A stretch of 56,833 nt of DNA from an uncultured virus (IMG/VR IMGVR_UViG_3300045125_000114) (Duplodnaviria; Heunggongvirae; Uroviricota; Caudoviricetes), in the IMG/VR virus record IMGVR_UViG_3300045125_000114; one strand, given 5' to 3'. Below, piece after piece: positions 6,373 through 55,222 of this stretch. Below the pieces are notes generated by a model. The model made no database searches. It saw only the letters and a program-made list of their open reading frames with translations, and was not told where the DNA came from. Positions within the stretch are counted from its first letter, which is position 1. Each line of letters starts with the position of its first letter. The translations under genes were made by a program, and so were the position numbers.

Positions 6373-6377
6373 GGCCG

Positions 6378-6406: not shown

Positions 6407-6418
6407 GTACATACCCAC

Positions 6419-6810: not shown

Positions 6811-6864
6811 TCCGAAAAGAACACGGGGCGCAAAGAGCAAGCACCGTATCATCATCGGCGATTT

Positions 6865-17478: not shown

Positions 17479-17912
17479 ATGCAAAACTTCTGGACGTGGC
17501 TCGAAAGCGCCGAACCCCACCCGACTGCTGCCGTGATCGTACTCAAAGACGGAAAGGCTTTGATTTTACGGCGAGGAATGACCGCACCTTGGATGCCCGG
17601 CAAATGGAACCTGCCGGGGGCGGAATCGAAGAGGGCGAATCACCACAACTTGCGGCCGTTCGTGAGTGCGAAGAAGAGGCCGGACTTACACCGACCGGCG
17701 TGACTTTTTACAAGAAAGTCTACGATCCGGGATTTACTTTGTATTTGTTCAAAGGCAAAACGACCCAAGAGCCGCACATCGACTTTGAAAGTGATGGCTA
17801 CGCTTGGGTCGCACTTCAAGATTTGAAACATTACCAATTCGTGCCTCACGTTGGCGAAGCACTGGCGTCTGTGTTATCGCAGACAGATGTAGGTTACAAG
17901 GCCGACAACTAA
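17479..17912 (+). CDS. NUDIX hydrolase in opposite orientation (frameshifted)
   Basis: WNLPGGGIEEGESPQLAAVRECEEEAG Nudix box; N-terminus MQNFWTWLES; preceded by CTAAATA. Confidence 0.85.
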
Positions 17913-18691: not shown

Positions 18692-19275
18692 TCATTGTGG
18701 TTTACCTACAAGGCCGTAAGCCTGAACCAGAGCCTTCGTGAAAAACGAAGGGTCGTCGCTCATCGCCTTCAACCAGATCGGCAGATATTCGTCGTACTTG
18801 GGGTCAATGGGCTGACCCTTCAAACCGTTGGCAATTTCCAAAATCAGCCGCAACTTGTCTAGTTGACATCCGCCCCAAGCACTTGCGAAGCCGCTGGGGT
18901 CAAATTCTTCGACATTTTGCACCGGAGCGGGTTTTTGCCACTGTGCGGCAGTAAGACCAAACACCTGCTCGGCATTAAACACATTGGCGGTTTGCGCGCA
19001 GTCGGGTGACGGGCCACAACAATGTTCGCCGCCCACTGGCCTTCTGTCACAGTTTCGGGACGCTTTTTCACCTTCAGTCGCAAGTGACCCCATTGTTGGT
19101 AAGTTGCCCAATAGGGACTTTTGAAGCCGTGTCGGAGAGCGTGAGCATTCAACAGCATGGCGTTGATGCCGTTGTAATTCGCATTAGACCATGCGTTGAC
19201 AGGAACCATCCCCGCTCGCCACGGGGGTTGGCCTGCACGCATGGCTTCGGCGATATAGTCAACTTGCTTGTTCAT
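18692..19275 (-). CDS. ArdC-like N-terminal ssDNA-binding (DUF1738) protein (frameshifted)
   Basis: GQPPW...PVNAWSNANYNGINAMLL......FKSPYWATYQQW...KVKK...VFNAEQVFG. Confidence 0.78.
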
Positions 19276-20359
19276 TTTGAATGCGTTGAATACGAGAAGC
19301 CACAAATGCCACGCACACGCCCAAACTGTCAGCGTGTCCGTTCATGTACATTTGCAGGGCATTCGATAAACCGGCCAAAAGACCGGCATAGAAATCTGCC
19401 GATTCGTTACCGGCAAACAACGCCGCCAATTCCTTCTCGGTTTCAGGGCTGATGTGTTCCATTTGTGCAGCGAATTGCTGCACAATTTCACGCTTGTACC
19501 GATGATCGAGTTTCATTTTTTGGCCTTTTAGTGAAACAGGTGTTTCTTGATGGCCCAATACGAGTAACCCATCAAGGTTCGCTCCTGTTGGGCGAATTCC
19601 TTGTACTCGGCTTCCGAGAACAGGTCGGCACAGAACTTGAACACGCCACGGTCGCCGAGCATTGCGACCGTCTCGCCCGGCTGAGAGCTGTGCCGTCAAT
19701 TCGGCAAAGCCGCTGCCGGTACTGACGAGTTTTCGCCCGCCCGCATCACGAATCGCTTGCTCGTTTGCGGGGTTGAAATAGCGGCCCATTCTTTTCCCTT
19801 TCCAATTGAGATACTGAACAACTTCGGGACCGGACGGCGGCTCAGGTTCGCCGCCGTTTCTGTAAAGCTGAACGACTTTTTGTGCGTCTTCGAGAGAACA
19901 TACTGGTATTAGTCCCAAGGCCACGGCCACGCTTGTCAAGCTGGAACCAACAAAATGGAAAATACCAGAGTCTCACTTGGGCTTCGTAGCCACAATAATT
20001 GTCTTTGATTATCCGGTATTTATTCTTGAACATCGCTTGTACCCTTCGCAAGCACAGGTTTGGGAGTTGCACTGCAGCTTGAGACTGGCTTCGCTGTTGA
20101 TCGAAAGCCACGCCTCAATCTTATCAACTAAACCTGCCGGACCAAGCTTCAATTCGTGTTCTTCGATGATGTGCCGGGCCGAATCCGAGCCGCATGACGC
20201 ACTTGGAAATCGCCCCACGCTTCATAATGGGCATGACCCACACGCCGACCCAAACCCCGTCAACGGTCAACAGCGTCGATTCCGAGCGTGTAATCGTCTT
20301 GCCCCGACGTTCCAGTTCGCCGATCACGTCCTTGAGAACAAGCAAACGAGCGGCTTCGG

Positions 20360-24339: not shown

Positions 24340-25140
24340 TCAGTCGTTACCGGCAAGTTTTTGCCGCAGACGGAGCATTTCGATGTACAACCAAACCAGC
24401 GTTACCATCAGGCCCGAAAGCCCCGTACCACTCGTACCACTTCGGAGCCTTGTCTTCGGCCGCTTGGACAATTTCATCGAAATCGAACACGAGGGAAATC
24501 GCCCCGACCACCACGATGCCCATTTGCAGCAAATGCCCCAAGTGCCGTTGCTGTGAACGACCGGAACATACGATCCGAACAGCCGCATCACGCTGTCGGT
24601 CATGTAGAGACAAAGAATCCCCAACATCGCCACCAACAGAATCACGGCCAATTTTTGGGTCGGCGTGATTAAACCGGTAGAGTAAAGCACCAGCATCGAC
24701 AGCGCCGTGCCAAACACGCCGACCGTGGCCTCAATTACGATGCCCGGATATTTTGCTTCAAAACCTGCCGAAATCGCCCCAAGCGCCAAACCCTCACATG
24801 CGGCATAAAGCCGGGGCAGGAAAGGTGCCGAACGTTTCCAGAAAATTACCACCATCGCCACGACAGAAGCCGACCAAAATCCCGCCCGTTGCCAGACCGA
24901 TCACGTTGTTCGGAATGCTGATTGAATCAGGCGGCTTATTCCCCGCTGCCTCGGCAGCGACTTTTGCTTGAGCAAACTGTTCGGAATAGCCCTGCGTCGA
25001 AAGGTGCCAGGTGAAGCCGAACGTCACGGCTAAAATGGCAAACAACACAATCGACTTGAAAGCGGTTCCGACCACGGTCGCACGATTGGAAGTGTCGTGA
25101 TCCAGTGGTCCGTCGTACTCGTTCAACGCTGGATTACTCA
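24340..25140 (-). CDS. Bax inhibitor-1/YccA family membrane protein (frameshifted)
   Basis: YAACEGLALGAIS..FEAKYPGIV..A...LYSTGLI...LVFDFDEI....KAPKWYEWYGAFGLMVTLVWLYIEMLRL. Confidence 0.85.
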
Positions 25141-32813: not shown

Positions 32814-33290
32814 CTATTCGGCTTTCAATCTCTTGGCCCAAATTTTCACCCTTTCGGCCAAATCCTTCAAGGAGTAGGAAATCTCAGGATTCCAAGGACG
32901 ACCCAAGCCCAACTGAACCTCCAAATCAATTTTTCGCTTGTAATCCGGGTGACACCCAACGAACAAAGGATCGGCCCGCTCGCAAAACTTCCCCAACTCG
33001 AACAAGGTAATGGGGCAGAGAGTTTCGTGAGGGAACCAAAACAACCGTGCCGCCGAGAGTCGGAGATACTTATATTCCCACTTGATTTGTTGTTCGGTCA
33101 TAGTGGGGTCAGTGATGTCGAAATTATCCCGGCGAGGGTTGATTAAAACTAAATCAGTGTCCTTGAGCAGTTCTACCATCTCAGGCTGCCATTGAGGACA
33201 GCTAGAAATGCCGCCGCCCAAGAACAGCATGTCATCTCGGATGTTGCCGTTCTTGAAGTCGTATTCGTCGGGACAGCGAATCTCTTTCAT
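32814..33290 (-). CDS. Nucleoside 2-deoxyribosyltransferase-like protein
   Basis: LFLGGGISSCPQWQ...INPRR.....QQIKWE..L.....FWFP.ETLCPITLFELG. Confidence 0.8.
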   Translation of the reverse strand: MKEIRCPDEYDFKNGNIRDDMLFLGGGISSCPQWQPEMVELLKDTDLVLINPRRDNFDITDPTMTEQQIKWEYKYLRLSAARLFWFPHETLCPITLFELGKFCERADPLFVGCHPDYKRKIDLEVQLGLGRPWNPEISYSLKDLAERVKIWAKRLKAE

Positions 33291-34607
33291 ACCTGCTCCA
33301 GTCGGAACATGCCAAGCGTCCACATGCAGCGTTGCAAGATGGTGTTGGCGTGATTGATGGCGTATTGGAACCCGTAACGACCGTCGTTGATCTTTTCTTT
33401 ATGATAAGCTTTGCCCAAACGACGGGCAAGGTCGTGGGCGAAGTTAGCCATTTGAGTGGAGTCCATAGTTTCGACACAACGTTTGTGGTAAAACGTAAAG
33501 TAATTGGCGAAACCAATCAGGTCTGCATCGTCTTGGGTCAGATCGTAGTAAGGGTCCGGGTGTTTCTTGCTTTCCCACGGAGACGTTTCCTCGTCTCCGA
33601 AACCCAACTTCATCGCCTTCATCGTGTGAGGCGGGAAGTGATACCAGCTTTTCCCCGCGCCGCCTTTTTGACACGGGCGAAAGTGTAGGTGATGTAAAGC
33701 CCCGGAGCGTCGGCCTTTGTCCAGTCGGCCGGATTGTACTTTACATTTTGTGTACGAGCGACGGTCAAGAAGTTCCACGCCAGTACGTTCCACGCCAACT
33801 TTCGCTTGTCGGGGCACGAATCTTCCAGATTCTCCATCACTTCTTCCATGATGGCTTCTGCTTTCGGCGAATCAGCGGGCACACCTTCTTTGCTGGCACG
33901 GGACTTCAACTTTTTACCATCAGAACCCAACACCAACCCCATTGGCAGGTGCTTGTCGCCCAGACCCAAAGAGGCAAAGTGTTCTTTCTGTTCCGCTCCG
34001 GTAATGTAATGTGTAGGTCCGACAAGCTTTGCGAAGGCCAAATCGTGGAAAGCGTACAACGGCGATCCGTCGTATCGCTTGACTTTTTACCGGGCCGTTC
34101 GGACCTTCCCAAACCCACGGCAGTTCGTGTTCTTCTAACAGCAACGTGTTGGTGTCGTCTTTGTAACCTTGGCGACGGCACTCCACCAAGTCACGAGGCA
34201 TCAACACGTCGTAATACAGTTCCGGCTTGAAGTCGAGAAACTCGAACCACTTTTCTAGGGCGTCTGGTTGAAGTCTTGTAGACGCCCTGACTGGCTCCGA
34301 GCAACGAAACGAAACTGATCTTTTCGCCGCTGTCCCCGCCGTATTTCAACAGGCACTTCAACGAATTTGCTACTGCCAGTTGGGCGCAAGTGCCCGGCAT
34401 GAAGCTCTTTGTTGAGGTTGGGAGAAAACCCGTCAATGACGTAATTGTTTTCTACTTGAAACCATTCGGGCCAGTCTTGACACTCTGGCGTGACGTAGTA
34501 ATTCCAAATGCGACCAACGTTCACCTCACGGTAACGTTTGGCGTAGTCGGGCAACTGCTCGTTGGAGAAAATCCAACGCCGTGTGGACCGGTGATGGGAC
34601 GGATCAT
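33287..34607 (-). CDS. argS: Arginyl-tRNA synthetase-like protein, shortened (frameshifted)
   Basis: IDGFSPNLNKELHAGHLR (HIGH), KRYDGSPLYAFHDLA, YITGAEQKEHF, GLVLGSDGKKLKSR (KMSKS-like), APGLYITYTFARV, DALR-like C-terminus ANFAHDLARRLGKAY...LGMFRLEQV. Confidence 0.82.
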
Positions 34608-35110
34608 GGGAGTCTCAGAGATAACGCCATTTCTGGAAGAATAACATTTCTACATTCGATGCGGTATCGGGGCCAGTTGTCCCAACACCATTTTTCGGCA
34701 TTGTCAGGGTCGTCAACGAACTTCTGACGGGCTTCTTGTTTGAACACGTCGAAATCGGCCAATCTCTGGTGTCTTCTTGGGTCAAACGGTGTGTACCAAC
34801 CGTTCCCGTGGTTGACTTCCCAATAGTAATCGTAGGTGCAAGCGGTAAGGACATATTCTTCGGGAAAAAGCGTTCTCCTGCCGCCTAGCCAAGTAGCAAC
34901 ACATCGGTGGTGGCCGTCGTGAATGTACCTGCGGCCGTCCTCGAACTCACGGATTTGAATGAGTGGCGATGGTTTCTTTAGTTTTTCTTTCTTGCAGTAA
35001 ACCTGTAGAGTACTCGATTGTCCACCGACCGCCACTATGAACGTGTTCGATCATTTCGGGCAGCGTGTCCCAATGACGCAGGGTACATTGGGTTACGAAA
35101 CCGTTTTCAA
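34604..35110 (-). CDS. ParB/sulfiredoxin N-terminal-like protein
   Basis: PLIQI..FEDGRRYIHDGHHRCVA; start uncertain. Confidence 0.5.
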
Positions 35111-35369
35111 CTCAAGCACGGAGCTACCCATCTTTCTGTCGCAACAAAGATTGTGGTATGCTCACTCACTTCCGTGTCAGACAACTTACAGACCACTTTG
35201 TTTTTGAAAGACAACAGCGGCTCCAAATGTACGCCCTTGCGAATACAGGCAACGTATTTTGGGCCGGATCGACCGAATCGTATATCGACTTACCGATAAG
35301 CTCGGAACCCGCCCGCCAAATGCCGATGTCGTATACCGTTTGAACCGAATCTGCGGGCAGCTTCTTTTC

Positions 35370-36035
35370 CTCTTCGCAGGTTCGGCCCAAGGTCGGGCGA
35401 GTTTCAGCTTCAATTCCTCGATCAGAATGTGCAACTTTTTCTTGGTCAAAAGGTCTTTGTTTTCCTTGTAAGTCTTCCGCAGTTCTCGAATTCCCTCAAT
35501 CGTCAAATTGGCGTGACCCTTCAAGTTGTTGCATATCAGGCACATCGTCTGATAGTTCGAGTGACGGTCTTCCCCGCCACAGGACTTAGGTGTATGTGAT
35601 CTTTCGTCATCAACACCAACTTGCCGTCTTCTTCGCCGTACAAGTTGAAGTGAGGCGACTTGTCGGCCGGATGGTGTTCCAACAACATCCTAGTTCCGGG
35701 CAAGTCGCAAGATACACAGTGCATTACACTCACGAAAGAGGAAATACCTTTGGGAGTTCATTTTGACGGCATGAGTTTGACCGTCATAAGTGTAGTCCTC
35801 TTGACATCCTCTTTCGTGATAAGAGTGTACTACCTCGTCGGGCCTGAATTCTCCTAGTCTTACTTTTTGGACTTTCTCCTTCAAACGGTCGATGCGGACG
35901 CCTGTGCGGAGCCGCCTGTAATTCCCTGTGAAACAGCCTCGATCTGTCTCCTGAAGCGACTTCTAATGCCTCATCCGGGGGCAGGTCCGAGTCGAAGTCC
36001 CAAGTTACTGTACTGGTGGCTCTGAACTTAGCCAT
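35370..36035 (-). CDS. HNH endonuclease (frameshifted)
   Basis: CVSC...HFNLYG.....LMTKDHIHPKSCGGED..SNYQTMCLICNNLKG. Confidence 0.75.
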
Positions 36036-36066
36036 ATGGTACTTCGCAAGATTCGGGTTGTAAAGT

Positions 36067-36517
36067 TCATTTGTCTTTGTCCCGGTCTTGCAACTCCTTT
36101 ACAATTTTTTTGAGTTCGGCCACTTCTTCGGCCGGCATTTTATTCTGCTCGACGATCTCATGCTCCCACGCTGAGGTCGGTTTCCACCAACTCCTTAATC
36201 TCTCGAAAAAAGGCTACGATAAATCAAATCCTGCTTAATTTCGCACCGGCGTTTGCGACATCATAATGAACGGTGCCTGAAACGCCGCCTGCAAGGGAAA
36301 GGAACAAATTGAGCAGAGACATAAGGATAAGAATCCCATCGTATTGGGTGTGGATTAAATTGAGCGACATCCAAGCCTCGACGAACCACGAGGCCCGATA
36401 TGATAAACTTCCATGAACTGCCGAATTTTGCTACGGCATCACTGACTTGCTCCACATGAACGTGCGTCCCGTCGTTTTCCATCGGGCCTCCGTGTTTTTG
36501 GTGTGGGTTGCTACCAT
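36067..36517 (-). CDS. DUF1003 membrane protein (frameshifted)
   Basis: SDAVAKFGSSWKFII...WDSYPY.LLNL.LSLQAAFQAPFIMMSQ. Confidence 0.75.
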
Positions 36518-36556
36518 GCCACTATCTAGCAACCGCACACCCACGAAAGACTTTAA

Positions 36557-36826
36557 TCAAGCCGAATTTCTTCCATCATCCTGTTGACCTCGGCCTGAGC
36601 TCTCCAGAAGCCGGTACACCATCATATTGGCGCTCCACATAGACCCCAACTCGTCGTCGGTGCGTTTGGCGAAGTGCTTGATCCAAGTTGATATAGTTGG
36701 ATTTTCGTTTTCGAGACAGGCCAAATGTTCGTCCAGATATTGCTCGTCGTCGCACTTATCGACTTCTTGTGCGAGCGAATATCCCACATCAGGGTGTACC
36801 AGCGGCAAATATGTTGCGTTTCCCAT
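36557..36826 (-). CDS. Hypothetical protein
   Basis: MGNATYLPLVHPDV...MVYRLLES; GAGGAG SD. Confidence 0.55.
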   Translation of the reverse strand: MGNATYLPLVHPDVGYSLAQEVDKCDDEQYLDEHLACLENENPTISTWIKHFAKRTDDELGSMWSANMMVYRLLESSGRGQQDDGRNSA

Positions 36827-38826
36827 TTGGAAGCTCCTCGGATATATCGGATCGTAATATATCCGAAATCGTCGCCACAATATCAAAAGTCCAGAATCAA
36901 AAAGAAACCTTGACACCGGAAGCACGGCTTTTACAATCGTGTGGACACCCCGGAGAGAAAAATGGAAGAAATGAAAATTGGAAAAAACGGCAGATCAAAA
37001 ACTGGCCGAGCGGATCGTACAGGGCGGCATTCCAGAAGCCCTGAAGGTCGTTTCCGGAACTACAATCGGCCATTGGCGATCAACAAAAAATTGCAGAAAC
37101 CGGCTACGCACAGGCGTACCAAGTCATTGCCGAACTGAGACAACGTTTGGAAAATCAAAAAGCCGAATATGAAAAGCAATTGGAATCAGGCTGCGAAGAA
37201 GCCTACCAAATGCTGCTGAACGAGAAGGAAGAAGAATGAGAAACTGGAAGCCACCCTCTACGAAGAGTATGAAATCAAGCTGCGGGAGATGAAGAATCAC
37301 ATTGTCGATAAAGTCGATCAGTTCCTCAATTTGCAGGGCCAAAAATTTGCACAACACCCGCAGGGCGAGGAAGCAGGATATAAAGAATTTCGTTCGACTC
37401 ATACGGCAGAACGGGTCGTTGTCGATGCTTTGAACGAGCGATTCTCGCACCTGCCTCGGACGACGAAATGCCGCCCGTGCGTGAAAAAGAACTGATTCGT
37501 ATTCTTGAAGCCAAACTCATGCGGCTACAAGTTGAGAACCGCAAACTTAATGAGCGGGTAGCAAAACTAGAAGCAGCCGCCCCGAAACCCATCATGGACG
37601 ATGTGTTCAAGGGCGGCTTGCTCGGCGGCATCGGTCACTACACCAAAGAACAACTTGAAGAAGGTGCCAAATATTACGGCACCATTCGTCTAGGGGGCGA
37701 AAATGACACCCCCGACGAACGTGACACCACTCACGACCTGTAATCAGGACAGCAAATCCAATAGGTTGTCGATTTCTTCAAGGCTCGAGTGCCAACGGTT
37801 GCACTTCCTCGGCCGTTGGCACCGGAGTACGAGCCTGCTTCGCCGCCACACGAATCGCCCGTCCGAGCGATTCGTTGACCAAGACGTAAGTGTACTCGAT
37901 CCCGTCCTTGTAATATCCCTTGGTCGGGTGCCAATTCACCGTCTTCGTCACCTTGTTCGAGAACACGGTGCAGATCGACGGTTCGTTCCACGGCAACGGT
38001 TCCCCGTAGCCGATCACCTGACCCTCGGCGTTTCGGATGCGAGGCTTTTTTGCACACGGTTGTGGGGAGCCTTGCGATCCCACCGCTCCCACGACTTGGC
38101 ACGCCGAGCTGCCTTGTCGTAAGCGGCGTTGAGTTTGCGAAGCTTGCGGCTCGTCTCAAGAGAGACGGGGTGAAAGCCCCACTTGCTCTGGAAAGTTTCA
38201 ATAGTCGTAGCCATTTTAGTTGCCCTCTTCGTCTTTGAAATTATCGCCATCTCTGAAGGACGGAACAGCGGCGATAAACCGTTCACGGTCCTGTTCGGAT
38301 TGAAAGAAATACTCGATGTAGAAGCAGTCAGTAACCACTCTTGGTCAGACACATCCCGGCCCAATTGCCTTCGTGGGAGTGTTCCCCCGGATCGTTGGTA
38401 CTCCGGGGCTTTGCCTTTTACCACCCGGCCGTCCTTGGTCGTGTACTGGTAATCCCTTAACGTCTTCGTCGCCAGCACCACCGGACAAGCCGGATATTCG
38501 CTGTAATAGTCGTGACACTTGCCGTCACACGGACTCACGTTTGCCCACAACCAGCGTGAAGCAAAATCGTCGATACGGTTCGTACCCTCCAACACCGCCG
38601 AATATGGAAATCTTTCCATCAAACTCCGTCTTGTCGATTCTTTCTTTTCAACAACCGACAACATCAGCGCTATTGACTCAGGGTTCCGCTTCTCTACAGA
38701 TTCCCGGTGTTCACGTTCGTGTTCGATCCATTCCTCGTAAGATGCGAGACGGATCGTATCTTCATTTGTCATGACGTAGCTTCCCCTATGGCACAAGTGC
38801 CCACAGTTACAGGTTGATTGTTGGAA

Positions 38827-39169
38827 TTAGGCAACCGGAGACAGTTGAAGCGACGGAACAGGTGCCGACGGTCCCCGAAAATCGGTTCCGTGGCAAAAGC
38901 CCGTTAGTTGGTTGTCTCGGTCGGGTTCGATGAAAGGAACACACTCCACGCCCAAACCCCGGATTTTCTCCAGAGTACGGTGAAGTTTTTGTTCGTGGTC
39001 GATACCGACGACCACAAGATGAGGGTGATCGAGGTGTTGTGGAATTAGACCCTTACGGGCCAGTTCGATGCCAGCGTGTGCGGTTTGAACGACGATCTGT
39101 TCGACGGGCAAATCTTTTGCGAACAAAGATGTAAACGTGGTTGACAGTGTCAGAAATCTAGTGAGTCAT
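38827..39169 (-). CDS. Peptidyl-tRNA hydrolase II-like protein with an in-frame amber (TAG) at codon 4
   Basis: ATG ACT CAC TAG ATT TCT GAC ACT GTC AAC CAC GTT TAC ATC TTT GTT CGC AAA = MTH*ISDTVNHVYIFVRK; after a 1-nt A-run slip it continues DLPVEQIVVQTAHA...HLVVV...FIEPDRDNQLT, a Pth2-like pattern. Confidence 0.75.
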
Positions 39170-39888
39170 GTTAGTCTCAGTTAGAGCTAGGGTTGAGGTT
39201 GAATCCGCCCGTATGTTTAGTCTGGCCGTCCGGTGCGTTGTCCGGCCACACTTCGCCCTTGTATTGTAGTAGCAGGCAGACCACTTCGTCAACGGCACGA
39301 GGCGATTTTAGTCGCAAAACCAGATCGCCAAGCCCCTTGACTTGCAAACTGGGGGCCACCGCTGTGGGCTTCCCGGTTCCGTCCGTTGAAGGGCACCACG
39401 CTCCGACCGTGTAGCCTTCGAGTTGCGGACCCATTAGAGGACTTCCCATCGCATTCCCTCTTTCGTTACCGCCTACTCTACTACGGTTTTCCGCCGGTTG
39501 TCTATCAGATTTTTCTGAAGCGTGCACGGAGCCAGTTCCTGGGGTCGATTTTCTTCCGCAAAGCTGCCGACGGCCACGGACTTTGTCCTTTTCCTTCATG
39601 AAGAAGTCCGATTGCTCACACTCAAATATCTTGTACTCGAAAAACGGACAGGTTTCGTAGACATAGGTGAATTTGCCGGTTTTGGCAATATTCAGTTTGC
39701 GGCCGGTCTGTGTATAACTCAGCATTTCCAAATAGCCCTCGGCGTCTTCGAGGGTCGGATAGACAACAGAATCCGAAACCACGGTCGTTTACCAGTTCCC
39801 ACGGCGGGTCCATTTCGGCATCCATCCAGCCGGGGCGAGGGCGATAGGCAACGACATAAAACTTGAAGTTTTTCATATGGTTCCCTCG

Positions 39889-39920
39889 AAAAAAAGAACC
39901 GGGGCAATTGCCCCGGTTCT
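39889..39920 (-). terminator. Intrinsic terminator
   Basis: AGAACCGGGGCAATTGCCCCGGTTCT followed by a T run on the minus strand. Confidence 0.8.
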
Positions 39921-40175
39921 GGAAGCTAGGTTTCACATTGCCAGTGCCCTCCGGGGTTAGAGCCATCGACTTTCAACATACATATGGTGGGTTACGCCCG
40001 GCAGCGGTCAGACTACCGATGAGCCACATCGGGCTGCAATACAGGGCTTGGCCCTCTTAAAAAATATGGTTGAAATTTTTCAGGTTGTCGGCGGTCCACG
40101 AGGCATGACGATATCCTTTCTGCCGTGGGTTAGATTTTGCCGCTCCGGTTTATTCAAGCCGGTTCGTCGGCAGCT

Positions 40176-40493
40176 TCAGTCCCACTGCTTTTGGGTTTCG
40201 ACAGCAGCTCCCACCAGCCGATCTTTCGGTTGGCTTCCGACCATCGTTTCAGTTGCAACCCCGCCGTTGAACACGATTAACGTGGGCAGGGCGCTGATAT
40301 TGTAATCCGTGCAAAGATCACGGTTTTCTGTAGCGTCTACCTTCACCACTTTGAAGCCCTCGGCAGCGAGTTCCTTCAAAGTTGGGACCATGCCCCTACA
40401 TGGGCCGCACCAGTCGGCGTAGAAGTCCACCAGCACGGGCACCGTAGATTCCAGCACTTCGCTCTTGAAAGAGTCTTTATTCACGTTGGTCAT
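40176..40493 (-). CDS. trxA: Thioredoxin
   Basis: PVLVDFYADWCGPC...ISALPTLIVF. Confidence 0.92.
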   Translation of the reverse strand: MTNVNKDSFKSEVLESTVPVLVDFYADWCGPCRGMVPTLKELAAEGFKVVKVDATENRDLCTDYNISALPTLIVFNGGVATETMVGSQPKDRLVGAAVETQKQWD

Positions 40494-41014
40494 TTTTTCT
40501 CCGTATTTGTGAGCCACTTTCCCCATTCCTGCTTGTCAGCCTCTTCTGCCACATCGGACAGAAGATCGGGTCGGTCGAGCATGTTGTCAACAGGCTCGCC
40601 CCAGCCCTTGCCCTTTTGGGCGTCCCAAATCTCGTGCAAGCCCTTCTCGTTCGGGAAGCCCCAAGGGAATACACTTGCCAAATGGCTGGTATTTACCAAC
40701 TTTTGGTCGGTTTATTACATCCGGGCCAAAGTAAAGGCGTACATCACGATGTTGCCCGGCGAACCGTTCGACAGAACGCAAGCAAGAATCGCCGTCCCGA
40801 CACTGACCTTGCCGCCGTAAAGCTGGAGCCGCTGATAGAGAATCCGACCCACCAGCCCACATTCGGCAGCGTGGGTTTCGTTAAACTCTTCCGGCTCTTT
40901 GGCCTGCTCCAGCATGGCCGCTTGCAAGAAAGATCTCAGACGTTTTTAAGCTCATCGGCTCTCGATGGCTGGTGTCCATCAGAGACGGTATGTAGTGCAA
41001 CTTGTTCATGGCAG

Positions 41015-41043
41015 ATGTTACCACTTTTCGCTTGAATTGTAAA
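41015..41043 (-). promoter_or_regulatory. Sigma70-like promoter, probably leaderless
   Basis: TTTACA-N17-TAACAT, then 5 nt and ATG at 41009. Confidence 0.55.
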
Positions 41044-41655
41044 CTACTTTTTGCCGCACAAGAGCGAAATCATCTCGTACCACGGTTTTGGGGTAAAGAC
41101 CAGTTTTTTCGGCGTCTTTCAAAGCTGCTCGAACAACTCGTTGATTGTTTCGGGCGTAACCACAGCTTGCTCGTCTTTGCGTTCTTTCTCAACGCACTGT
41201 AAATCACACGCTTCGGTTCCGTCCGACATTTGACGCTGCCCGGAAGGACTGATCCAAATATCGGACTGGCACTTGTGGCATTTGAAAACGGCACTGCCTT
41301 CGACGCCGCCGTTTTCAATGTTGGCGGCGTCTTCGACCCTGATGCAAATCAATACGTTTACGTCGTCCACGGGAGCCTCTTATTGGGGGCCAGTTGAATG
41401 CCTTTTTCTTTCATTTCTTCTTGGGCCATCCGTGTGATTTCTGGATTATCGCAATTAACTGCGAAAGCCCCTTGTGTTTTCCGCCGACGTAGCCCATGTA
41501 GCCGACGTATTCGAGGCTGAAACCTTCACTGGCCTGAACGAGCCAGCACTTGCCCCTTCAGTCGAAGGACGTATTGGAATGCGTGAGGGATCGGAACCGA
41601 ACGCTGGTGAATGCTCCAGTATCCGGCCTCGCCGCCGATAACGAGTCGCCGTGCC

Positions 41656-42375
41656 TCACGTTCGCTGACTTCTTTCATTTTTCATCTCGAAAGCGTGTTC
41701 GACGTTGTCGGGCAGACCCGGCAGTTTGCAGGCGAAGCCCTTGTCGTAGTTGTAGGAACACAGATAATACGACCGCTTGGACTTCAGCACCACCGCCTCC
41801 GGGATCGTGTAGGCGCCGGATCGGATTCGATTCACCTTGTCCCGCTTGTAGTGTTGCGTGAACCCGCCAGTTGTGTTCTTGGGCGGCGTCCACTGCTTGT
41901 CTACCAGCTTCTCTTCCAGACCGCCGGTGAACCACGGGTTGGATGCGTCCACCTTCTGGTCGGCCCACCCGTCGGTGCGGCGGCAGTGGGCTTCCTCGTA
42001 AAACAGTCCGGTCTTCGTGTCGAGGTACACGAACTCGGAAAACCGTGGCTGAAAGTGAATCACGTCTTCAAGTTTGATTTTGGCGAATTCGATCTTGTTC
42101 TTTTCCAAATGGCAAGTAGACAGTGACGGTCCCTTGCAATATTCGCTCGTTATGCTCTGGTGGTGTGAGGTGCTGACGCTGTACTTGTCGGCGTTTCTGA
42201 TGAAGAACGGTTGCCCGTCACGTTCGCCGAGATAAATGGCGAGCGGAAAGTGCGAGCCGTAGCTGAACAGGACGTTGTCCCGACAGTAAACGTTGTGTCC
42301 CGTCCACTCCACGTTACCGGTGCGGGCGTTCTTTTGTCGTAATGCGAAACGTCTGACGACTTCTTTGTGGTTCAT
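41656..42375 (-). CDS. Hypothetical phage protein
   Basis: Intact 239-aa ORF with LFSYGSHFPLA...YSVSTSHHQ. Confidence 0.7.
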   Translation of the reverse strand: MNHKEVVRRFALRQKNARTGNVEWTGHNVYCRDNVLFSYGSHFPLAIYLGERDGQPFFIRNADKYSVSTSHHQSITSEYCKGPSLSTCHLEKNKIEFAKIKLEDVIHFQPRFSEFVYLDTKTGLFYEEAHCRRTDGWADQKVDASNPWFTGGLEEKLVDKQWTPPKNTTGGFTQHYKRDKVNRIRSGAYTIPEAVVLKSKRSYYLCSYNYDKGFACKLPGLPDNVEHAFEMKNERSQRT

Positions 42376-42559
42376 TGGAAGTTAATTTCTTGGGCACCGA
42401 AATCCTTGATTGCTTCGTCCAGTCCGGGGGTGCCTGTAGCCCGGACCACAAGTAGAACTGTCGAATCCTTTCGCACAACGTCGAGGCCGTCGATCAGTCC
42501 CTTGACGAGACAGTATTCACAGAACGACGACCACGAATCGTTGCTGAATTTCAACACCT

Positions 42560-43349
42560 TCACTTCGGTTCTTCCTCAGTTAGAGATTGAATCGGAATGT
42601 GAACTTCGACTTCCCTGATGAAACTACCCTTGCTCCCGTGCCAGCCGAGAGCCATTGATCGCCACTCAGTCACCCAAGAACCGGGGAACCGTTGCTCCAA
42701 CTGTTGGCTGAGGTATTCTCGACTCCGTGGGGTGTCCAACACCTTGGGATCGCCGCTGCCACTATCGACAATATCGACGTGTGTTCCGAGTTCCTCGATG
42801 GTTTGCATTTTACGAGCGGTGGCCGACACCGGAGTGTCCTCTTCGCTCGTCCATGCGTGACGGTCCAACATGCCGCTGAGGGTTGCGTGGAAGGTCGGTT
42901 GCGAGTACCGGGCCAAGAACTTGCCGTCAACCAGACTGAAACCGAGCGATTTCCACCACCGTTCCACCAACTTGTTCATTACCGATAGCTTGTTGGTAAC
43001 GGCTTCCGGGGTTACTCCCTTAGCCATTTCCTCACGGAGCCGCTGGTTTTCCCGTTGGGCAAGGTGAAGGTTCTCACGCATCAGGTCTTCGGCGTCCTTG
43101 TTCCTTTCCTCCCCCAGAAGCGTAAAAATACGCTTCAGTTCCGATTGGGCGATGTAGAGACAGTTGTATCGGTTCTGAACTTGAAGTTCGTTTTTGCCCG
43201 CCAATTCACAAACGAACTGGAGAGCGCGCCGATTACTTCGCCGATGGCTTTTGCGGAAGCCGCCTGTTGGTCTGCATTCAGAACAACAGGCGACTCGTCA
43301 AAACTTTTCGGGTCACGACTCAGAATCGGCTGAATGGGCAGGCTCATCA
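42560..43349 (-). CDS. Hypothetical protein (frameshifted)
   Basis: MMSLPIQPILSRD... joined to a 214-aa frame; GAGGA SD. Confidence 0.55.
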
Positions 43350-43354
43350 TTTCC

Positions 43355-44094
43355 TCAGTTGTTGGACGGGTCGAACCCGAACTTTCGTTGGGACTTGGTC
43401 TTTTGCAAAGGGGCGATGCTTGCAATTTTATCCAAGTCGAAAATCAGACCGGGTTCTGCGTCACGGACTTCCCATGCGCCATTTTCGATTTCGCTCTCAA
43501 GCTGACCCGGTGCCCACCCCGACATGCCGGTGAAAAGCCGGTACTTATTGTCGGCAGACAGTCCGGCGGCAAAAATCCGAACAAGAACCTGCGGCCCGCC
43601 AAAGTAAATGCCCGGCACAATTTCCGGGTTTTCCCTAAGCGCTTCGGCGAGCGTACCAAACTCTTCGTCATTCTCTTCCTTCTCGAAACCCATGCCGATT
43701 TCGTAGGAATTATCTTCGCCTTCTTCCTCTTCTTCCTCTTCTTCCTACGACCCGGAACGAAGGGGTAATGTCCATGTTCTCGTCGTCCTTTGGAGAACTG
43801 TTCGTAGCCGTGAACCATGAACAGAGAACCTTGCATACCGAGCGGCCCGCCAAGGCGCATGGCAATTGACGTGATGTCCCCGCTTTCTACACGTTCGGTG
43901 ACATCGCCAATGCTTTCGGGCAATTGATCCTTTTTGTCAACGGCACCGAAGGCCACTTGCCCGACTTCGGGACCGTTCAGGATGAACCCGGAAATTCCCT
44001 TGTCGTCGTGCTTGCTGATGAACACGACCGAACCGGCGAAAATCGGGTCGGTGATCGAGGGCTTCGCCACCAACAGCTTGCCTGTGTAATTCAC
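43355..44094 (-). CDS. YqgE/AlgH (DUF179) family protein with an acidic insertion (frameshifted)
   Basis: GKLLVAKPSITDPIFAGSVVFI.KHD.KG..GFILN...LGGPL...RLFTGMSGWAPGQLESEIENGAW. Confidence 0.85.
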
Positions 44095-46195
44095 GATTAT
44101 TCCTCTTTGAGCCGATGAATTTAGTTGTTTGGACAAACCTGTTACTTGTCCTTAATTCGGTATCCGTAAACGTAGTAGTTGTAGCCGTTGCTCACGTTCA
44201 CGCCGCCCATAACGTGACGGAGTTCGACATCCTTGCCGTAGTACAGACTCAGATACAACTGAATCCATTCGGGCGTAAAACCCTTCACCTTTTCATCTGC
44301 CGCCTTGCGAGCAGCCTCGGCCTTCTTGTAGTCCCACTCTTGTAGGCGATCACTGTAGTCGTAACTCAGACCCTTTTCTTCGGCGCCCCAGACTGTGCGT
44401 GCCTCGTTCCAATACGAATTGCTGTAGTGGATGTATGGGAACAGTGGCCTTCATGTTGTGGTTGACGAAAGCGGGGCAGTTGTCCAGTCCTTCAAGTTCG
44501 TAGCCGCCGAAGTCGTTGAAATGAACACGGGTCTTAGCCACTTTATTCGTCCCTTCCGATAACTTTGTTGTAATTCTCTACGGCTTTAAGGTGCGGCTTT
44601 TAGGGTCTGTGGGTTGGGATCGGCGAGGAAAGCCTTATATGCCTCGACCTTGAGATTCAAAGCGTGCAGAATCTTCTTGTCTTCTTCGGTCGGTTTTTCG
44701 TCGGGTCCGAACCAGAACATGACATTTCCTCGCAAAGATACTACCTCACAAAATGTGGGTTGTATACCGATCAAATCGGAATGCTTCTGTCTATTTTCAT
44801 CTCAAGTTCTTCGTACTTAGACAACAAACTAGGCAAGCGAGTGATTGGAGCATCAATCCGCTTCTCGGTTGATGGAATACCCATCAAATCTGCGATTGAG
44901 TACCCGTGTCCGTCCCAATTTTTCAAGAGAACGTTTTTCCTCTTTAAGATCGGACCATTCCTTTGCACCGCCGTGAGAGCCGTGGATGCCGTGAATCGGG
45001 AATAAAACGTAATGAGGCATCGACCAATACAAATCAAGAACTGTTCCCAACAAAGTGTTGGGCTTCTTGAAAATTACGCCCGTCCCAATCGTGATCCGTA
45101 CAAACAGACACTATCTCCACACTCGGTAGGACTGTAAAACATCGTGTCCGACAGAGCACGTGAGTGGCTTGTTGTGGAAAAACAGTCTCAGTGACATCAT
45201 CGGCTGCCCGTAGTACAAAAAGCCGCCGGGCTTCCTGTAATACTACCACAAAAGTATAGTACGGATACCATACTGTGGCGATATATGGGCGTAACGTGGT
45301 ACTGTCCTTGAGACAATAAATGGAACGGCGTTCAGGCTCGCTACTATTGATGGAAAGACAACGACCTTTATCGTAGGTGTTGTCAAGATCGAGATTTGTG
45401 ATATCGCAGATTCATTGCGACCTCAAAAACGCCTCAGTTTGGAGGGACAGTCGTCGTAATTCAGAACCACACTCTCGTCAGGCTTGGCACGAGCAACTTT
45501 CTTCTGTCCCCACGCCACGATAGCAGCTTTCCATCGGCGAAAATACAAAATCGCCTCTTGAGCCGACTCATACCGACATTGACTGTAGAAATGATCGGTT
45601 TTTAGACGAGTTCATCGGCTGATACTGCCACCACAGCCCGTTCTTGTTCGGGCAAAAGTTGTGACGGAGAATGGCCCAGCGGTCGGGGCCACCGTCGGGA
45701 TTGCCCATGTTCTTGACCGTAACCATCGTCGGCTTGTCGTCAAACGGCTTTCAGGCGGATCAAGAAAGCCTACCGGAAACGATAGGCTCTGGTCCCACGT
45801 TGAATTCGCACGCCATTTCTAACAGTTCGGCGTCTGTAACTTTTTCCATGTCAATCACCAGCGAGTTTGGACTTCAACCACTCGTCGTTTTTCTTCTTTC
45901 GCTCTGGCGTCCACCACGAGCGAAAGTCTGTTCACACTTGTGACGACTCTTTCCACAACTCTCTTCTGCTGAAATGTCTACGAGTAGATTTTGCCACTGC
46001 GCCTCTTCTTGATGTCGGTCGCCTGTCCGAGACAGGGACAGAATCTTGTCGAAGCCATCCGTGTAGGAAACGTCTTTTTCAAGCACCGTTCCGTCTTTGG
46101 TAAGATCATAAAGAACGGTGTAGGTTTCGTCCCTTCTTGCCGACGGTCGAAAGGCGATAAAGTAGCCATTTTTCTCTCTGTTAAAAAAGAAACAG

Positions 46196-46266
46196 CGTCC
46201 CGTGCAGGAGTTGAACCCGCTTCTTCCGGGTTAGAGCCGGAGGCACAGCCGATATACCAACGGGAC
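46196..46266 (-). tRNA. Amber suppressor-type tRNA, anticodon CUA (Glu-like acceptor stem)
   Basis: GTCCCGT-TG-GTAT-ATCGGCT-GTGC-C-TCCGG-CTCTAAC-CCGGA-AGAA-GCGGG-TTCAACT-CCTGC-ACGGGAC-G; complete cloverleaf, CCA not encoded. Confidence 0.85.
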
Positions 46267-46270
46267 AAAA

Positions 46271-46347
46271 TGCCCTCACCGGGATTTGAACCCGGACTGA
46301 CGAGAGTTTTAGAGACCCGCGCACTACCGTTGTGCTGCTAAGAGGAT
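46271..46347 (-). tRNA. Second tRNA with CUA anticodon (Trp-like anticodon arm; imperfect)
   Basis: D arm GCAC-AACGGTA-GTGC, anticodon arm CGGGT-CTCTAAA-ACTC, T arm CCGGG-TTCAAAT-CCCGG. Acceptor pairs 5 of 7; small duplications may be read errors. Confidence 0.65.
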
Positions 46348-46351
46348 CGAA

Positions 46352-46420
46352 ACAGCGTCGGGGATCGAACCCGATTTTTCACTACTCCCGTAGTTACTAC
46401 CGCCCATCCGCAGCGTGCCG
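46352..46420 (-). pseudogene. Degenerate tRNA-like element (T arm only)
   Basis: TCGGG-TTCGATC-CCCGA T arm and the same trailer CGCTGTTTC as tRNA 1; no acceptor or anticodon arm recognisable. Confidence 0.4.
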
Positions 46421-46426
46421 AAAACC

Positions 46427-46460
46427 GACCCAGAGCAAAAAAGACGCCGGTGCAACATTT
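46427..46460 (-). promoter_or_regulatory. Partial bipartite motif, copy 9, upstream of the tRNA cluster
   Basis: AAATGTTGCACC-ggcgtcttttttgc-TCTGGGTC; downstream half degenerate. Confidence 0.45.
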
Positions 46461-46713
46461 TAGGCCATTTTTCTTCGAGTCGGCGGATCAACTCTTCTAC
46501 ACTATCGAAGGAAAGACGGAGAGTGTCGTCGTCGTTGAAAATGTCGCCCATCAAGGCGTCTGCGTACTGCTTGCCGGGCTCCCGGAAAATGCAGCAGCAG
46601 TTCGCCGCAAAATCCGTCGCCAAGATGTAGCTGCATCTCAACGGTTCGTTTGCCGTTTTTCTTCTGATTCCTCGGCCCACTTGTTGAGAGCGTCGAACAC
46701 AAACTGGAACGTT

Positions 46714-47013
46714 TTAAGCTTGTCCATTGAAAAAGTCCTCAACGGTCAAGCCCTGATAGATGTCGAACAGTTCGTCACTTTCTGCAAAGTGGTCCGTCGT
46801 ATACGGCATCCAGCCGTAATCGTTCTTTGGAACATCTGCAAGGGTCTTGACCCATGTAATTTCGCCGTCCGTGACCGTCAGATTGAATTCCTTCCAAGGC
46901 ATTGAACCCGGATCTTGGTGCGAAAAGGCACTGCGGATCGCACGCTCGTTGTCCGTTTCACTGTAAAGGTACAGGTCTAGGTCGGGGTCGCCACGACTCA
47001 GCCTGAACAGCAT
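46714..47013 (-). CDS. Hypothetical protein
   Basis: MLFRLSRGDPDLD...; about 99 aa within the array. Confidence 0.5.
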   Translation of the reverse strand: MLFRLSRGDPDLDLYLYSETDNERAIRSAFSHQDPGSMPWKEFNLTVTDGEITWVKTLADVPKNDYGWMPYTTDHFAESDELFDIYQGLTVEDFFNGQA

Positions 47014-47327: not shown

Positions 47328-47815
47328 TCAGATTCCCAGACCCGGCTCGAACGTGCCTCGTGCGTTTCGGTAAGACTCGATCAAATTGATCGGCATCCAA
47401 GAGGCACACTCTCAGACCCTTCGACCAACTTTTTCAACTCGTCAAACGTCACCCACTGCCAGCCCTCACACTTGTCCGGTTCGGCATTGACCGGCTCGCC
47501 GCTGACCCAATTGGCCGCAAGGAAAATGGTGATATAATGCTTCCTGTACTGAGGCATTATGTCGTTTGTGACAAACCATTCCAACCGATTCTTGTTGAAA
47601 AATTGGAAAGAAACCTTGAAGTCAGGGCCGCACTCTTCTTCGAGTTCACGGTGCCCACAGTCCAACAGAGTTTCCCCAAAATCAAGGTGCCCGCCGGGGG
47701 AAAGAAAACAGGCCGGAAGCGCGTGCCGCTCGCGACGACCGACAAGCACTTTGCCGTCCTTGACTACGATGATGCCGGTTCCGACACGGACTTGAGGTGC
47801 GAAAGCAATTTCCAT
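47328..47815 (-). CDS. NUDIX hydrolase, NUDT15/MutT-like (frameshifted)
   Basis: VRVGTGIIVVKDGKVLVGRR...PGGHLDFGETLLDCGHRELEEECG...HYITIF...EPDKCEGWQW. Confidence 0.88.
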
Positions 47816-47821
47816 TTTTGT

Positions 47822-48476
47822 TCCATCACAGGGGTTTGAATTCGATCCCATCGAGATGAGGGACCATGTCTTTGATCTTGTAACCGAAACAGAACAGCGG
47901 GATGAAATCAACCGCACCTTTCATCGAATCCTTCCAAAGTTCAAAACGGGCAGAATCGTGGCTCTGCGTAGAAAACACTCTGCCAATAACCCGAAACCTA
48001 CTGCGTCTGCCAGTTGCGGGAGTGTCTTGTAAGAAGGCTCAACAGAGTTGCCCATGCAGACGTTCAGGTACTCGCCTTCGTAATTTCCAAGAGGCAGAGC
48101 GTGGAGTGTAGCTTTTGGATCGTTCGGGCAATCAAGGCTGAAAACCGATCTGCGTGTTGAAATAAACGAATCTGGTCGTGTGTTTTTCGTGTACTATCCC
48201 GTATCGCACGATGAAAGTTGTATACGGAAATTCGAGACGAACGAAAGCCGGAGACTCGGTGCCTCGAACCTTAACCTGTATAGTTCTAGTTTGAGGCTTT
48301 TGAGTCAAAACCAGATAGTTGATAGAACTCATGCAGCCACGATCTTCCATGCCGTACCGCTGGTAATTGCAGCGTACACCCTTGGCTATATCCGCTCGCA
48401 TCGCTTTCGGTCTGCGAATCAGCCGGACGAAAAAACGTGTGAGCGGATTATACCTGAGCCAGTGTAAAATACTCAT
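47822..48476 (-). CDS. Hypothetical protein, weak resemblance to prokaryotic E2 family D
   Basis: RLEFPYTTFIV...LHALPLGNY...NVCMG pattern; frameshifted. Confidence 0.35.
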
Positions 48477-53511: not shown

Positions 53512-54156
53512 CTACTCTCCGTACTGTTCCCAACCCGATCCCGAAAACTTCCTTCAGCTTCTCAAGGTACTTCAAGGTTTGGGCCTTCCTGTACCAAAGG
53601 TCGTGCCCCCTCGCCACCTTTTGCAATCACGCCCTCAACCAGATCGTGCTTTCCGTTGCGAACATCCTGAATGAAAGCTTCCCGTAAACGGGCCTTCGTA
53701 AATTACCGCCGGTGTTCCCAGACTGGAAAAAGGTCGACGAACTGGCGTGGCGGAATAAACCCCACGCTTGTGTACGTTTACATCAAAAAGGACAAGCTGC
53801 TTCGGATCGTTGCTCTCGACCCGGAGGAACGTAGCGTCGTGCTTGCCTGCGAAGCTGTGAGGACCGAAAAACTCGGCGTAGGCGATCATGTTTTCGACCT
53901 TGCGGAGAGTGTCCCGCACGGCCTTCTCAACCCCGTCTGCATACTTGTTGAGGAACAAGTCGATGGCGCAGCGCCGTATTCGGGGTCGGTGTGATCAGAA
54001 CAAACGACGGCGGGTTGCCGAACTTAGCACCACCCGGAACGAGGGTTCCACGCGAAACGTAGATTTGAGCCGTCCAACTTGTCGAAAGCGATGCAATGTT
54101 CCGCTGCAACATGCTTCGATCTTAGACGGGCCAAGAATCTTCGGATGCTCTTTCAT
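53512..54156 (-). CDS. RNA ligase, Rnl2-like nucleotidyltransferase (frameshifted)
   Basis: AFDKLDGSNLR (motif I), AYAEFFGP, LVLFDV, IYEGPF, EGVI.K; appears to end WEQYGE-TAG. Confidence 0.72.
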
Positions 54157-54770: not shown

Positions 54771-55208
54771 TCACCCTAATAGGAGTATCGTATTGCGGAT
54801 TTCCCGCTCCTGATCTTCTTCTTTCAAACTTTCCCTTGTCGTGCAGTTGCTTGCCTTTACAAACTGCCAATTCCGCTGCGTCGCCCTTCAGAAAAATACA
54901 TTTTCAGAGGGATTAGCGTGAAACCCTTCATTTCGGCCTGATCTGCAAATTTTTGGATTTCTTGCTTTCCGGGAGAAGCTTTCGGTCCCGCTTTGGTTTG
55001 TGATTGAGCCGATTGCCGAACGTGTACTCTTCGATGTTCGAGCCAACAAGCCAGACTTCGCCGTTACGCACGACCGCATAACTGCCGTCAAGCTGGACGT
55101 GCCCTTCTCGACACGATTTAACCTCTGTGCCTTGTAGAACGATACCGGCCTCGACTGTATCGAGGAACATGGTACTCGTATCGGGCTTACGGTTGTGCAA
55201 ATTTCCAC
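54771..55208 (-). CDS. smpB: SsrA-binding protein SmpB (frameshifted)
   Basis: NRK...Y...DTVEAGIVLQGTEVKSCREG.VQL..SYA...GEVWL....I.EY..GN..NH.PKRDRKLL...GFTLIPLKMYF...KGKQLHDKRE. Confidence 0.9.
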
Positions 55209-55222
55209 TATCTTCTCAAGGA

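Follow-up and report, generated by a model that had tools for sequence, protein, structure and literature searches.

The stretch of DNA analysed here (the window, 56,833 nucleotides of the uncultured virus IMG/VR IMGVR_UViG_3300045125_000114) is part of a large phage contig, 180,833 bases long according to the record of its own protein. Its minus strand carries a small gene related to Pth2 hydrolases, in which the start codon is followed at codon 4 by an in-frame amber codon (TAG), hereafter the gate, and two tandem transfer RNA (tRNA) genes with the anticodon CUA. Comparison with homologous loci, described below, suggests that these elements belong to a putative conserved two-part module composed of one or two tRNA(CUA) genes and the gene of a small hydrolase of Pth2 fold. 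The features of the window are collected in Table 1, together with two neighbouring genes.

Table 1. Features of the amber-gated Pth2-like locus and its neighbours in the window
Feature	Coordinates	Strand	Description
Pth2-family hydrolase gene	38821..39169	-	Followed as MTH-TAG-ISDTVNHVYIFVRK / DLPVEQ...DNQLT / AFATEPIFGDRRHLFRRFNCLRLPNS; 3' end uncertain (frame errors)
Leader ATG start	39167..39169	-	7 nucleotides past the TGA (39177-39179) of the upstream open reading frame
In-frame TAG, codon 4 (gate)	39158..39160	-	Next codon ATT; precedes strand 1, in the part that is unstructured in the model
Frame break, extra base in a 4-base homopolymer run (AAAA on the minus strand)	39115..39118	-	Between ...FVRK and DLPVEQ
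Second one-base frame break, G run, approximate position	38897..38899	-	Between ...DNQLT and AFATEPIF
tRNA(CUA) no. 1	46196..46266	-	Anticodon loop CUCUAAC, G1:C72, discriminator G; ARAGORN; Rfam RF00005 45.7 bits
tRNA(CUA) no. 2	46271..46345	-	Loop CUCUAAA, C1:C72 mismatch, variable-region insertion; ARAGORN; Rfam 32.9 bits
ArgRS-like gene without N-terminal domain	33290..34607	-	Starts MIRPITGPHGVGF..., HAGHLR; at least five frame pieces from assembly errors; neighbour of the module
smpB fragment	54967..55215	-	PF01668, E 2.9e-24, 86.1 bits against a cut-off of 27, profile positions 3-77 of 143; neighbour of the module

Read from 39169 on the minus strand, the gene begins ATG ACT CAC TAG ATT TCT GAC, so that the Pth2-like gene with a start codon and a TAG at codon 4, claimed in a preliminary description of this DNA, is indeed present. 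The peptide given there, MTH*ISDTVNHVYIFVRKDLPVEQ, had however silently joined two frames by bridging homopolymer frameshifts. MTH*ISDTVNHVYIFVRK and DLPVEQIVVQTAHAG lie in different frames, and joining them needs one base fewer in the A run. Across the equivalent place the relatives P0005 and P0003 read VFVRKDLP and FVRKDLP in a single frame, and at the second break P0002 and P0003 are uninterrupted (...QLTAFATEPIF...); all three proteins, 72-89% identical, span both places in one frame. Judged from these relatives, and from the Illumina contigs described below that lack single bases at many comparable places, the extra base in the A run is an assembly artefact. The 99-residue piece of open reading frame (ORF) of the window gave by itself no Pfam match at E <= 1. 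Two frameshifts thus interrupt the Pth2-like gene and at least four the ArgRS gene, in a window full of such errors, which the preliminary description had not noticed.

The state of the sequence could be judged independently. ORFs are fragmented under translation table 11 and under every single stop reassignment, and an alternative code for the window was rejected, reading TAG, TGA or TAA as sense having failed to restore long ORFs; the corresponding gains in coding density (0.036, 0.049 and 0.034) come from a window too noisy to weigh them. The fragmentation is therefore due to insertions and deletions (indels) and not to the genetic code. A self-trained frame tracker assigned about 83% of the window to coding on the minus strand with 182 direct frame switches, and in a six-frame Pfam scan the two halves of an AlgH-like domain lay in different frames. 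Logan contigs from four Illumina metagenome runs of four studies cover positions 33000-47000, mostly with 95-99% likeness to the window, from which they differ at about 118 indel places and by about 250 substitutions in 14 kilobases (kb). A single base of the window is absent from them at 33657/33660, 34084, 34265 and 34382, exactly the frame breaks of the ArgRS gene, which identifies the frameshifts as assembly errors. The tRNA region (45275-47000) shows 35 gaps against one Illumina contig. Megablast found no close phage relatives of the window. At 39515-39541, inside the ORF 39177-39782 of the minus strand, Illumina runs X1 and X2 show 734 other letters in place of 25 window bases, which may be explained by insertion of an element in the relatives or by loss of sequence from the window.

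ARAGORN detected only two tRNA genes in the window, at 46195-46266 and 46270-46346, both on the minus strand and both with the anticodon CTA. As both exceed the gathering score of the Rfam tRNA model (29), the two tandem CUA-anticodon genes of the preliminary description hold, and the sequence of the second one may have been altered by assembly errors. No third tRNA was found upstream of 46346 with the Rfam model at E <= 1.

The ORF piece of the window led to one IMG/VR relative, L001, where the arrangement can be read without any frameshift: a Shine-Dalgarno sequence, ATG, TCA GAA CCA TAG and then IHRHFYVLVRTDLPSEQ, with a tRNA(CTA) gene 5.5 kb from the gene. An alignment of six relatives led to 80 loci in metagenome contigs and eight in viral contigs, and tblastn of P0005 matched all 89 loci and the window. 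We excluded 12 further identical copies (six groups), two loci lacking the anchor residue, two truncated at contig ends and three left unclassed (L015, L030 and L039), the remainder being 74 distinct classifiable gene regions. An early in-frame stop was found in 48 of them. Forty-three loci display an ATG, 0-7 codons, TAG and then the conserved first strand of the protein (YVYVLVRKDL); the same anatomy occurs with TGA in three (L006, L020 and L025) and with TAA in two (L003 and L075), and the remaining 26 have a plain start codon. Seven of these 26 are interrupted internally by an in-frame TAG, near residue 35 or 60, and three gated loci have such a TAG as their second (ten loci altogether). 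Read-through of a stop is therefore needed in 55 of the 74 loci and at several different positions, which argues for repeated, independent gain.

These gates share several properties. The nearest in-frame ATG lies 1-8 codons ahead of the stop in all 48 gated loci, and most homologs have no ATG, GTG or TTG between the stop and the first strand of the fold. The position of the stop is constant among proteins sharing only about 30% identity, and the residues that follow it are conserved. A purine directly follows the gate TAG in 50 of 50 cases (the 43 loci, six isolates and the window), which are not phylogenetically independent of each other; after ordinary ORF ends of the same loci the proportion is 43/66 for TAG, 105/217 for TAA and 76/144 for TGA. 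A purine following UAG favours amber suppression in E. coli. Two other ways of passing the stop were considered and rejected. Hopping over it finds no basis in the flanking codons, equal in none of the 48 gates and synonymous in one. An initiator-like tRNA(CUA) starting directly at UAG is contradicted by the standard 1:72 pair, counted by script in 44 of 46 suppressor tRNAs, by anticodon stems that, inspected by eye, lack the three G:C pairs, and by the ATG upstream of every gate. Genes neighbouring the homologs gated by TAA (L003, L075) or TGA (L006, L020, L025) contain no such in-frame stops.

The Pth2-like genes are physically linked to suppressor tRNA genes, which ARAGORN found in 42 of the 74 loci and in 28 of the 45 loci of at least 3 kb. 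The co-occurrence of an early in-frame TAG with CUA tRNAs, which the preliminary description had proposed to examine, is observed in 28 of the 43 TAG-gated loci; for loci with an internal TAG only the count is 3/7, for those without in-frame stop 11/19 and for TGA or TAA gates 0/5. Forty-three of 44 suppressor tRNAs lie on the strand of the Pth2-like gene, at a median gap of 436 nucleotides, and 37 of the 44 within 1 kb of it. The 46 distinct suppressor tRNAs are diverse in sequence, with an anticodon loop that is mostly CUCUAAA. Their best identities to other phage tRNAs are 65-77%, and tRNA-Arg is nearest for 17 of the 46 in a reference set that is small and biased. A plain-start homolog (L080) is adjoined by a tRNA(UUA). 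Transfer-messenger RNA (tmRNA) genes lie a few kb from the Pth2-like gene in four loci (L047:4353-4748, L060:2685-3035, L084:2019-2343 and L087:2628-3079), and the window has smpB.

The same arrangement exists in cultured phages. A tblastn search of P0005 against 50,697 phage records matched 36, all of jumbo or large phages, among which nine were examined. Six of these nine carry the gate, with the reading frame of the ATG kept through the body of the gene. Acinetobacter phage ME3 reads MT-TAG-IHENKKHTYVFVRRDIP and has an annotated CTA tRNA about 450 nucleotides upstream. The gene is unannotated in Yersinia fHe-Yen9-03 (MSH-TAG-IDKTW...), Serratia BF (MTH-TAG-NDKTW...) and Ralstonia RsoM2USA (ML-TAG-ISDKTY...); Cronobacter GAP32 (MAQ-TAG-NEKTW...) has a truncated coding sequence, and Salmonella Arash (ML-TAG-NKHW...) one of 50 residues named peptidyl-tRNA hydrolase. 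About 1 kb downstream of the Arash gene (L097:3798-3872), ARAGORN assigns the anticodon CTA to a tRNA that the record annotates as tRNA-Phe. As for the other three phages, XacN1 and RAS14 have no stop and carry the domain fused behind another protein, and K64-1 has a plain ATG. Phage BF encodes 29 tRNAs, with a single tRNA(CTA) located 3.3 kb downstream of the Pth2-like gene. This type of tRNA was found in 15 records including the two of BF itself, with 14 further records at 82-100% identity; among them are six phages of Erwinia, Yersinia fHe-Yen9-03 and -04 and Pectobacterium CBB, all of which also hold the Pth2-like gene.

Elsewhere in its complete genome, BF uses the standard code. ORFs of at least 100 codons end with TAA in 339, TGA in 98 and TAG in 17 cases, with no excess of long ORFs split by TAG. 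Under code 11 its greedy coding density reaches 0.899; with TAG, TGA and TAA read as sense the values are 0.909, 0.900 and 0.885, respectively. When the genome was scanned for early gates, the Pth2-like gene alone was devoid of any start codon in the 108 codons after the stop. The flanks of the metagenome loci are mostly 0.8-0.95 dense under code 11, without TAG-specific gain. The absence of genome-wide code-15 recoding put forward in the preliminary description, with TAG still serving as a stop, is borne out by BF, and the comparison of coding density with TAG as stop and as sense, run on BF and on the locus flanks, speaks in the same direction.

What the gated gene encodes could be approached through its closest intact relative. 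P0005, which shares 72% identity with the window piece, was modelled with AlphaFold from an alignment of 60 members, with a mean pLDDT (predicted local distance difference test score) of 90.6. Residues 1-13 are of low confidence and strand 1 spans residues 14-21, which places the gate in an unstructured leader where any inserted residue should do. The best 13 Foldseek matches in the PDB are all Pth2 or Pth2-like proteins (2zv3, 1wn2, 3erj, 1q7s, 1rlk, 1xty and 2gax), with probability 1.00, template modelling (TM) scores of 0.6-0.73 and 15-23% identity, and the family profile retrieved Pth2 chains of the PDB at 5e-8 to 7e-4. The Pfam profile PF01981 matches 53 of the 60 members at E <= 1 (best E 4.6e-12; P0005 reaches 19.4 bits for a cut-off of 23). 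Residues R21, H35, L66, F83, E85, P86, D87 and T93 are invariant in the 60-member alignment. On the basis of the model, the gated protein is predicted to have the alpha/beta fold of Pth2. Like archaeal and eukaryotic Pth2 (PF01981; PDB 2zv3, 1wn2, 3erj, 1xty and 1q7s), whose profiles are similar, it contains the R-x-D-L...Q..HA and D...T motifs; in contrast, where Pth2 has a DAG.T motif and a Gly-Lys before A-Q..HA, the phage family has EPDxxN..TA instead and no Gly-Lys. It also differs from Pth2 in being, in some phages, fused to or then followed by a second protein.

Together, these data lead us to propose that synthesis of the hydrolase probably depends on the phage suppressor, the early TAG acting as a gene-specific amber gate on the Pth2-like gene that the phage's own tRNA(CUA) would read. 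Translation would start at the ATG and the ribosome would meet UAG once it has passed a leader of 1-8 codons, counted from the ATG (Met-Thr-His in the window). With release factor 1 alone, a tiny peptide would end there and nothing downstream could start; the full protein of about 110 residues would be made only if release factor 1 lost the competition to charged phage tRNA(CUA). Hydrolase levels would consequently follow suppressor activity. Selection for this dependence is suggested by amber codons gained repeatedly at different positions in the gene, by the purine that follows the stop, by the unstructured leader and by the linkage to diverse suppressor tRNAs. If the protein hydrolyses peptidyl- or aminoacyl-tRNA, as its fold would suggest, the coupling could adjust either the clean-up of tRNA or the control of the suppressor itself to how much suppression takes place, and the hydrolase may clear the peptidyl-tRNA arising as a by-product of suppression. 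The idea at the centre of the preliminary description, a gene-specific amber gate read by a phage tRNA(CUA) in a phage that otherwise keeps TAG as a stop, thus receives strong support from the comparison: the gate recurs in 48 of 74 loci and six of nine cultured phages, the same strand usually carries the tRNA no more than 1 kb away, and BF has the coding density expected of the standard code.

Several observations weigh against this proposal. The tRNA genes of the window lie 7 kb from the Pth2-like gene in an error-rich sequence. No suppressor tRNA was found in 32 of the 74 loci, many of which are short contigs, and L082, the closest relative with long flanks, has the gate and no tRNA within 6 kb. 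P0005 is open from an upstream Met without any stop, a D being aligned, by eye and through the shared T-H, with the TAG of the window, which implies that the gate can be lost. The five loci with TGA or TAA gates, mostly short, show no matching tRNA and leave room for a mechanism independent of a cognate suppressor. Finally, the phage family, as aligned, has other residues in place of the Gly-Lys that belongs to the canonical Pth2 motif, and its substrate may therefore differ from that of Pth2.

A leader running from ATG to stop could also be a mini-ORF for translational coupling, ribosomes restarting at the next codon or near it while tRNA(CUA) serves other purposes. The TGA and TAA gates without a visible matching tRNA would suit such a restart, as would the ATT found after the stop in 15 of 50 cases, ATT being a rare bacterial start codon. 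Yet the other post-stop codons (GTT, GTA, GGC, GAC, AAC, GGT, GTC, AAT, ATC and ATA) are mostly no known starts, the internal TAGs at about residues 35-60 in ten loci would be impassable without losing half of the fold, and the stop is TAG, the codon read by the adjoining tRNA, in 43 of the 48 gates; we hold restart to be quite unlikely. Little probability is also given to a gate that senses termination in the manner of the UGA of release factor 2, read-through rising when release factor 1 is scarce or when ribosomes pause on very short peptides, and tRNA(CUA) setting only the baseline; hydrolase would then be produced upon failure of termination or of tRNA recycling. An early in-frame stop in a gene of a tRNA-recycling family and the tmRNA or smpB genes near several homologs are in line with such sensing, and very short ORFs (2-4 codons, as in the lambda bar minigenes) are known to favour drop-off of peptidyl-tRNA. 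It leaves the tight linkage to the cognate tRNA unexplained, however, and no frameshift signal is involved, since clean homologs stay in one frame.

That the early TAG would be an ordinary codon in phages reading TAG as sense throughout (genetic code 15) appears very unlikely. Phage suppressor tRNAs are the hallmark of TAG-recoded phages (bioRxiv 10.1101/2021.08.26.457843), and in three AT-rich loci coding density rises by 0.12-0.14 when TAG is taken as sense. These three loci nevertheless gain no less in one or more TGA or TAA controls, most flanks and BF speak for the standard code as described above, and recoding would not account for a stop held at the same place in proteins so diverged. 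As to the possibility that the TAG of the window and its frame breaks are mere assembly errors or traces of a decaying pseudogene, the density of indels and substitutions against the Illumina contigs and the two breaks in the gene itself would make it conceivable. Locus L002, however, has the identical MTH-TAG-IS, gates of the same kind are present in another 47 distinct loci and in the genomes of six isolates, and the residues after the stop are conserved; this explanation appears extremely improbable. An extension of the amber gate read by the phage's own tRNA, on the other hand, is tentative and in our opinion rather unlikely: the Pth2-like enzyme could strip the amino acid or peptide from tRNA(CUA) itself and, being made only via read-through of its own UAG, close a negative-feedback loop acting as a homeostat.

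Neighbouring genes of the window have a less direct bearing on the module. A piece of the ArgRS gene (33664-34083) retrieved 193 proteins at E <= 1e-5, mostly of 354-463 residues, with three shorter ones and one fusion of 1660 residues; most contain PF00750, many PF05746 and none PF03485. P0006, 79% identical and 405 residues long, starts MIRPLL..., about 70 residues before the HIGH motif, and scores 24.5 bits with PF00750 for a cut-off of 23.3. DALR matches are weak (E 0.0077 for P0006 and 0.0037 for the window piece), and no N-terminal tRNA-binding domain was detected in P0006 at E <= 0.01. The reduced ArgRS described earlier is therefore real, its N-terminal domain missing from P0006 as from all homologs listed. 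The proposals that it charges the suppressor, and that the gate goes along with this ArgRS clade, found no support: there is no ArgRS homolog in the other 89 loci, and the window tRNAs have the anticodon CUA without C35 and, as read from the alignment, no A at position 20, C35 and A20 being the main ArgRS identity elements in E. coli. The smpB claimed for the window is confirmed by a PF01668 match above the curated threshold, the remainder of the gene presumably lying in another frame. An RNA ligase had been described as ending WEQYGE-TAG; that stretch exists (about 53514-53532, minus strand) but matches no Pfam or PHROG family, and its identity as a ligase could not be confirmed.

Directly downstream of the Pth2-like gene, a second amber-split gene is present in BF (L091:2824-3390, BF 286418-286984) and also in L094 and L093. 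One frame of 188 codons runs from BF_0405 (46 residues) through a TAG at codon 47 (ELDTG-TAG-GDPILLEVY) and a stretch without annotation into BF_0406. The same amber-split gene is present in GAP32 and fHe-Yen9-03, and its homologs ME3_194 of ME3 and gp83c of Arash have sense codons at the TAG position. The protein corresponds to phrog_14850, with a weak hint of an HD domain (E 0.016), and its 46-residue front piece has its own PHROG, phrog_26054. Proteins of the phrog_14850 type are fused in front of the Pth2-like domain in XacN1 (ORF364, L090:1985-2824), RAS14 (L098) and L021, and follow it directly in L007, L016 and L019; the two proteins probably work together. No such HD-like partner gene is present in the window. 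Other family matches in frame-tracked pieces of the window lie at 3776-3952, 5864-6352, 16755-16916, 17553-17906 (plus strand), 19003-19302, 24416-24819, 32817-33290, 40179-40511, 43358-44085 and 47420-47824. The families at these ten pieces are Macro, NADAR, cytidylyltransferase-like, NUDIX (two), ArdC N-terminal domain, Bax-inhibitor-like, nucleoside deoxyribosyltransferase-like, thioredoxin and, over two frames, AlgH-like. In L001, an 888-residue helicase-like ORF (4251-6917) appears intein-like (...HKCVAGDTL ... VNHNSQG...), as judged by eye from its translation.

The proposed switch echoes some known systems. The release factor 2 gene prfB is autoregulated via an early in-frame UGA, through a +1 frameshift that senses its own product. 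In both cases an early in-frame stop stands in a gene of termination or recycling and stop decoding would set the output. They differ in that the gated Pth2-like gene keeps its frame in clean genomes, where no programmed frameshift of the prfB type at the stop was met (the frame break of the window being an assembly error), and in that decoding of the stop would fall to a separate tRNA encoded nearby; any feedback on this tRNA is hypothetical. Code-15 phages (crAss-like, Lak and others) have their own suppressor tRNAs and read TAG as Gln, according to Borges et al. (bioRxiv 10.1101/2021.08.26.457843) and Peters et al. (PMC9523058). As would be the case here, a phage tRNA(CUA) reads UAG and the dependence of genes on it can act as a switch. 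TAG is however spread there throughout many, mostly late, genes, whereas BF keeps the standard code and the stop is restricted to a single gene or a pair of adjacent genes, mostly at codons 2-9, with the gene physically linked to the tRNA.

Orphan suppressor tRNAs have been reported in standard-code jumbo phages such as XacN1 (PMC5852040) and Atu_ph07 (PMC6102473), the same kinds of phage and tRNA as here. The XacN1 authors extended ORFs past terminal TAGs and state that targets of the CUA tRNAs could not be identified (PMC5852040). XacN1 does have a homolog of the Pth2-like gene, but as a fusion without stop, whereas the gate described here stands at the start of an unannotated or truncated gene. 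The openly searchable full-text literature, subscription journals and supplements being outside this scope, gave no description of an amber-gated Pth2-like gene beside a phage suppressor tRNA.

Such genes easily escape annotation. Gene callers skip the Pth2-like gene or start it after the stop, isolate annotations miss or truncate it, and PHROGs holds the 46-residue front piece of the neighbouring amber-split gene as a separate family. The purpose of a stop-reading tRNA in many standard-code large phages had been unclear, and this small gene of Pth2 fold is a concrete, conserved and likely target. Our results suggest a simple translational switch in which the output of one gene would report the activity of one tRNA, and the presence of the same arrangement in cultured phages with ordinary laboratory hosts makes it directly testable. 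If the homeostat mentioned above were true, it would keep amber suppression constant at a given level in a standard-code host, as a tRNA counterpart of release factor 2 autoregulation. Portable and self-contained, the module would then allow UAG codons of host or phage to be read through in measured doses, and this would account for the orphan suppressor tRNAs found in jumbo phages.

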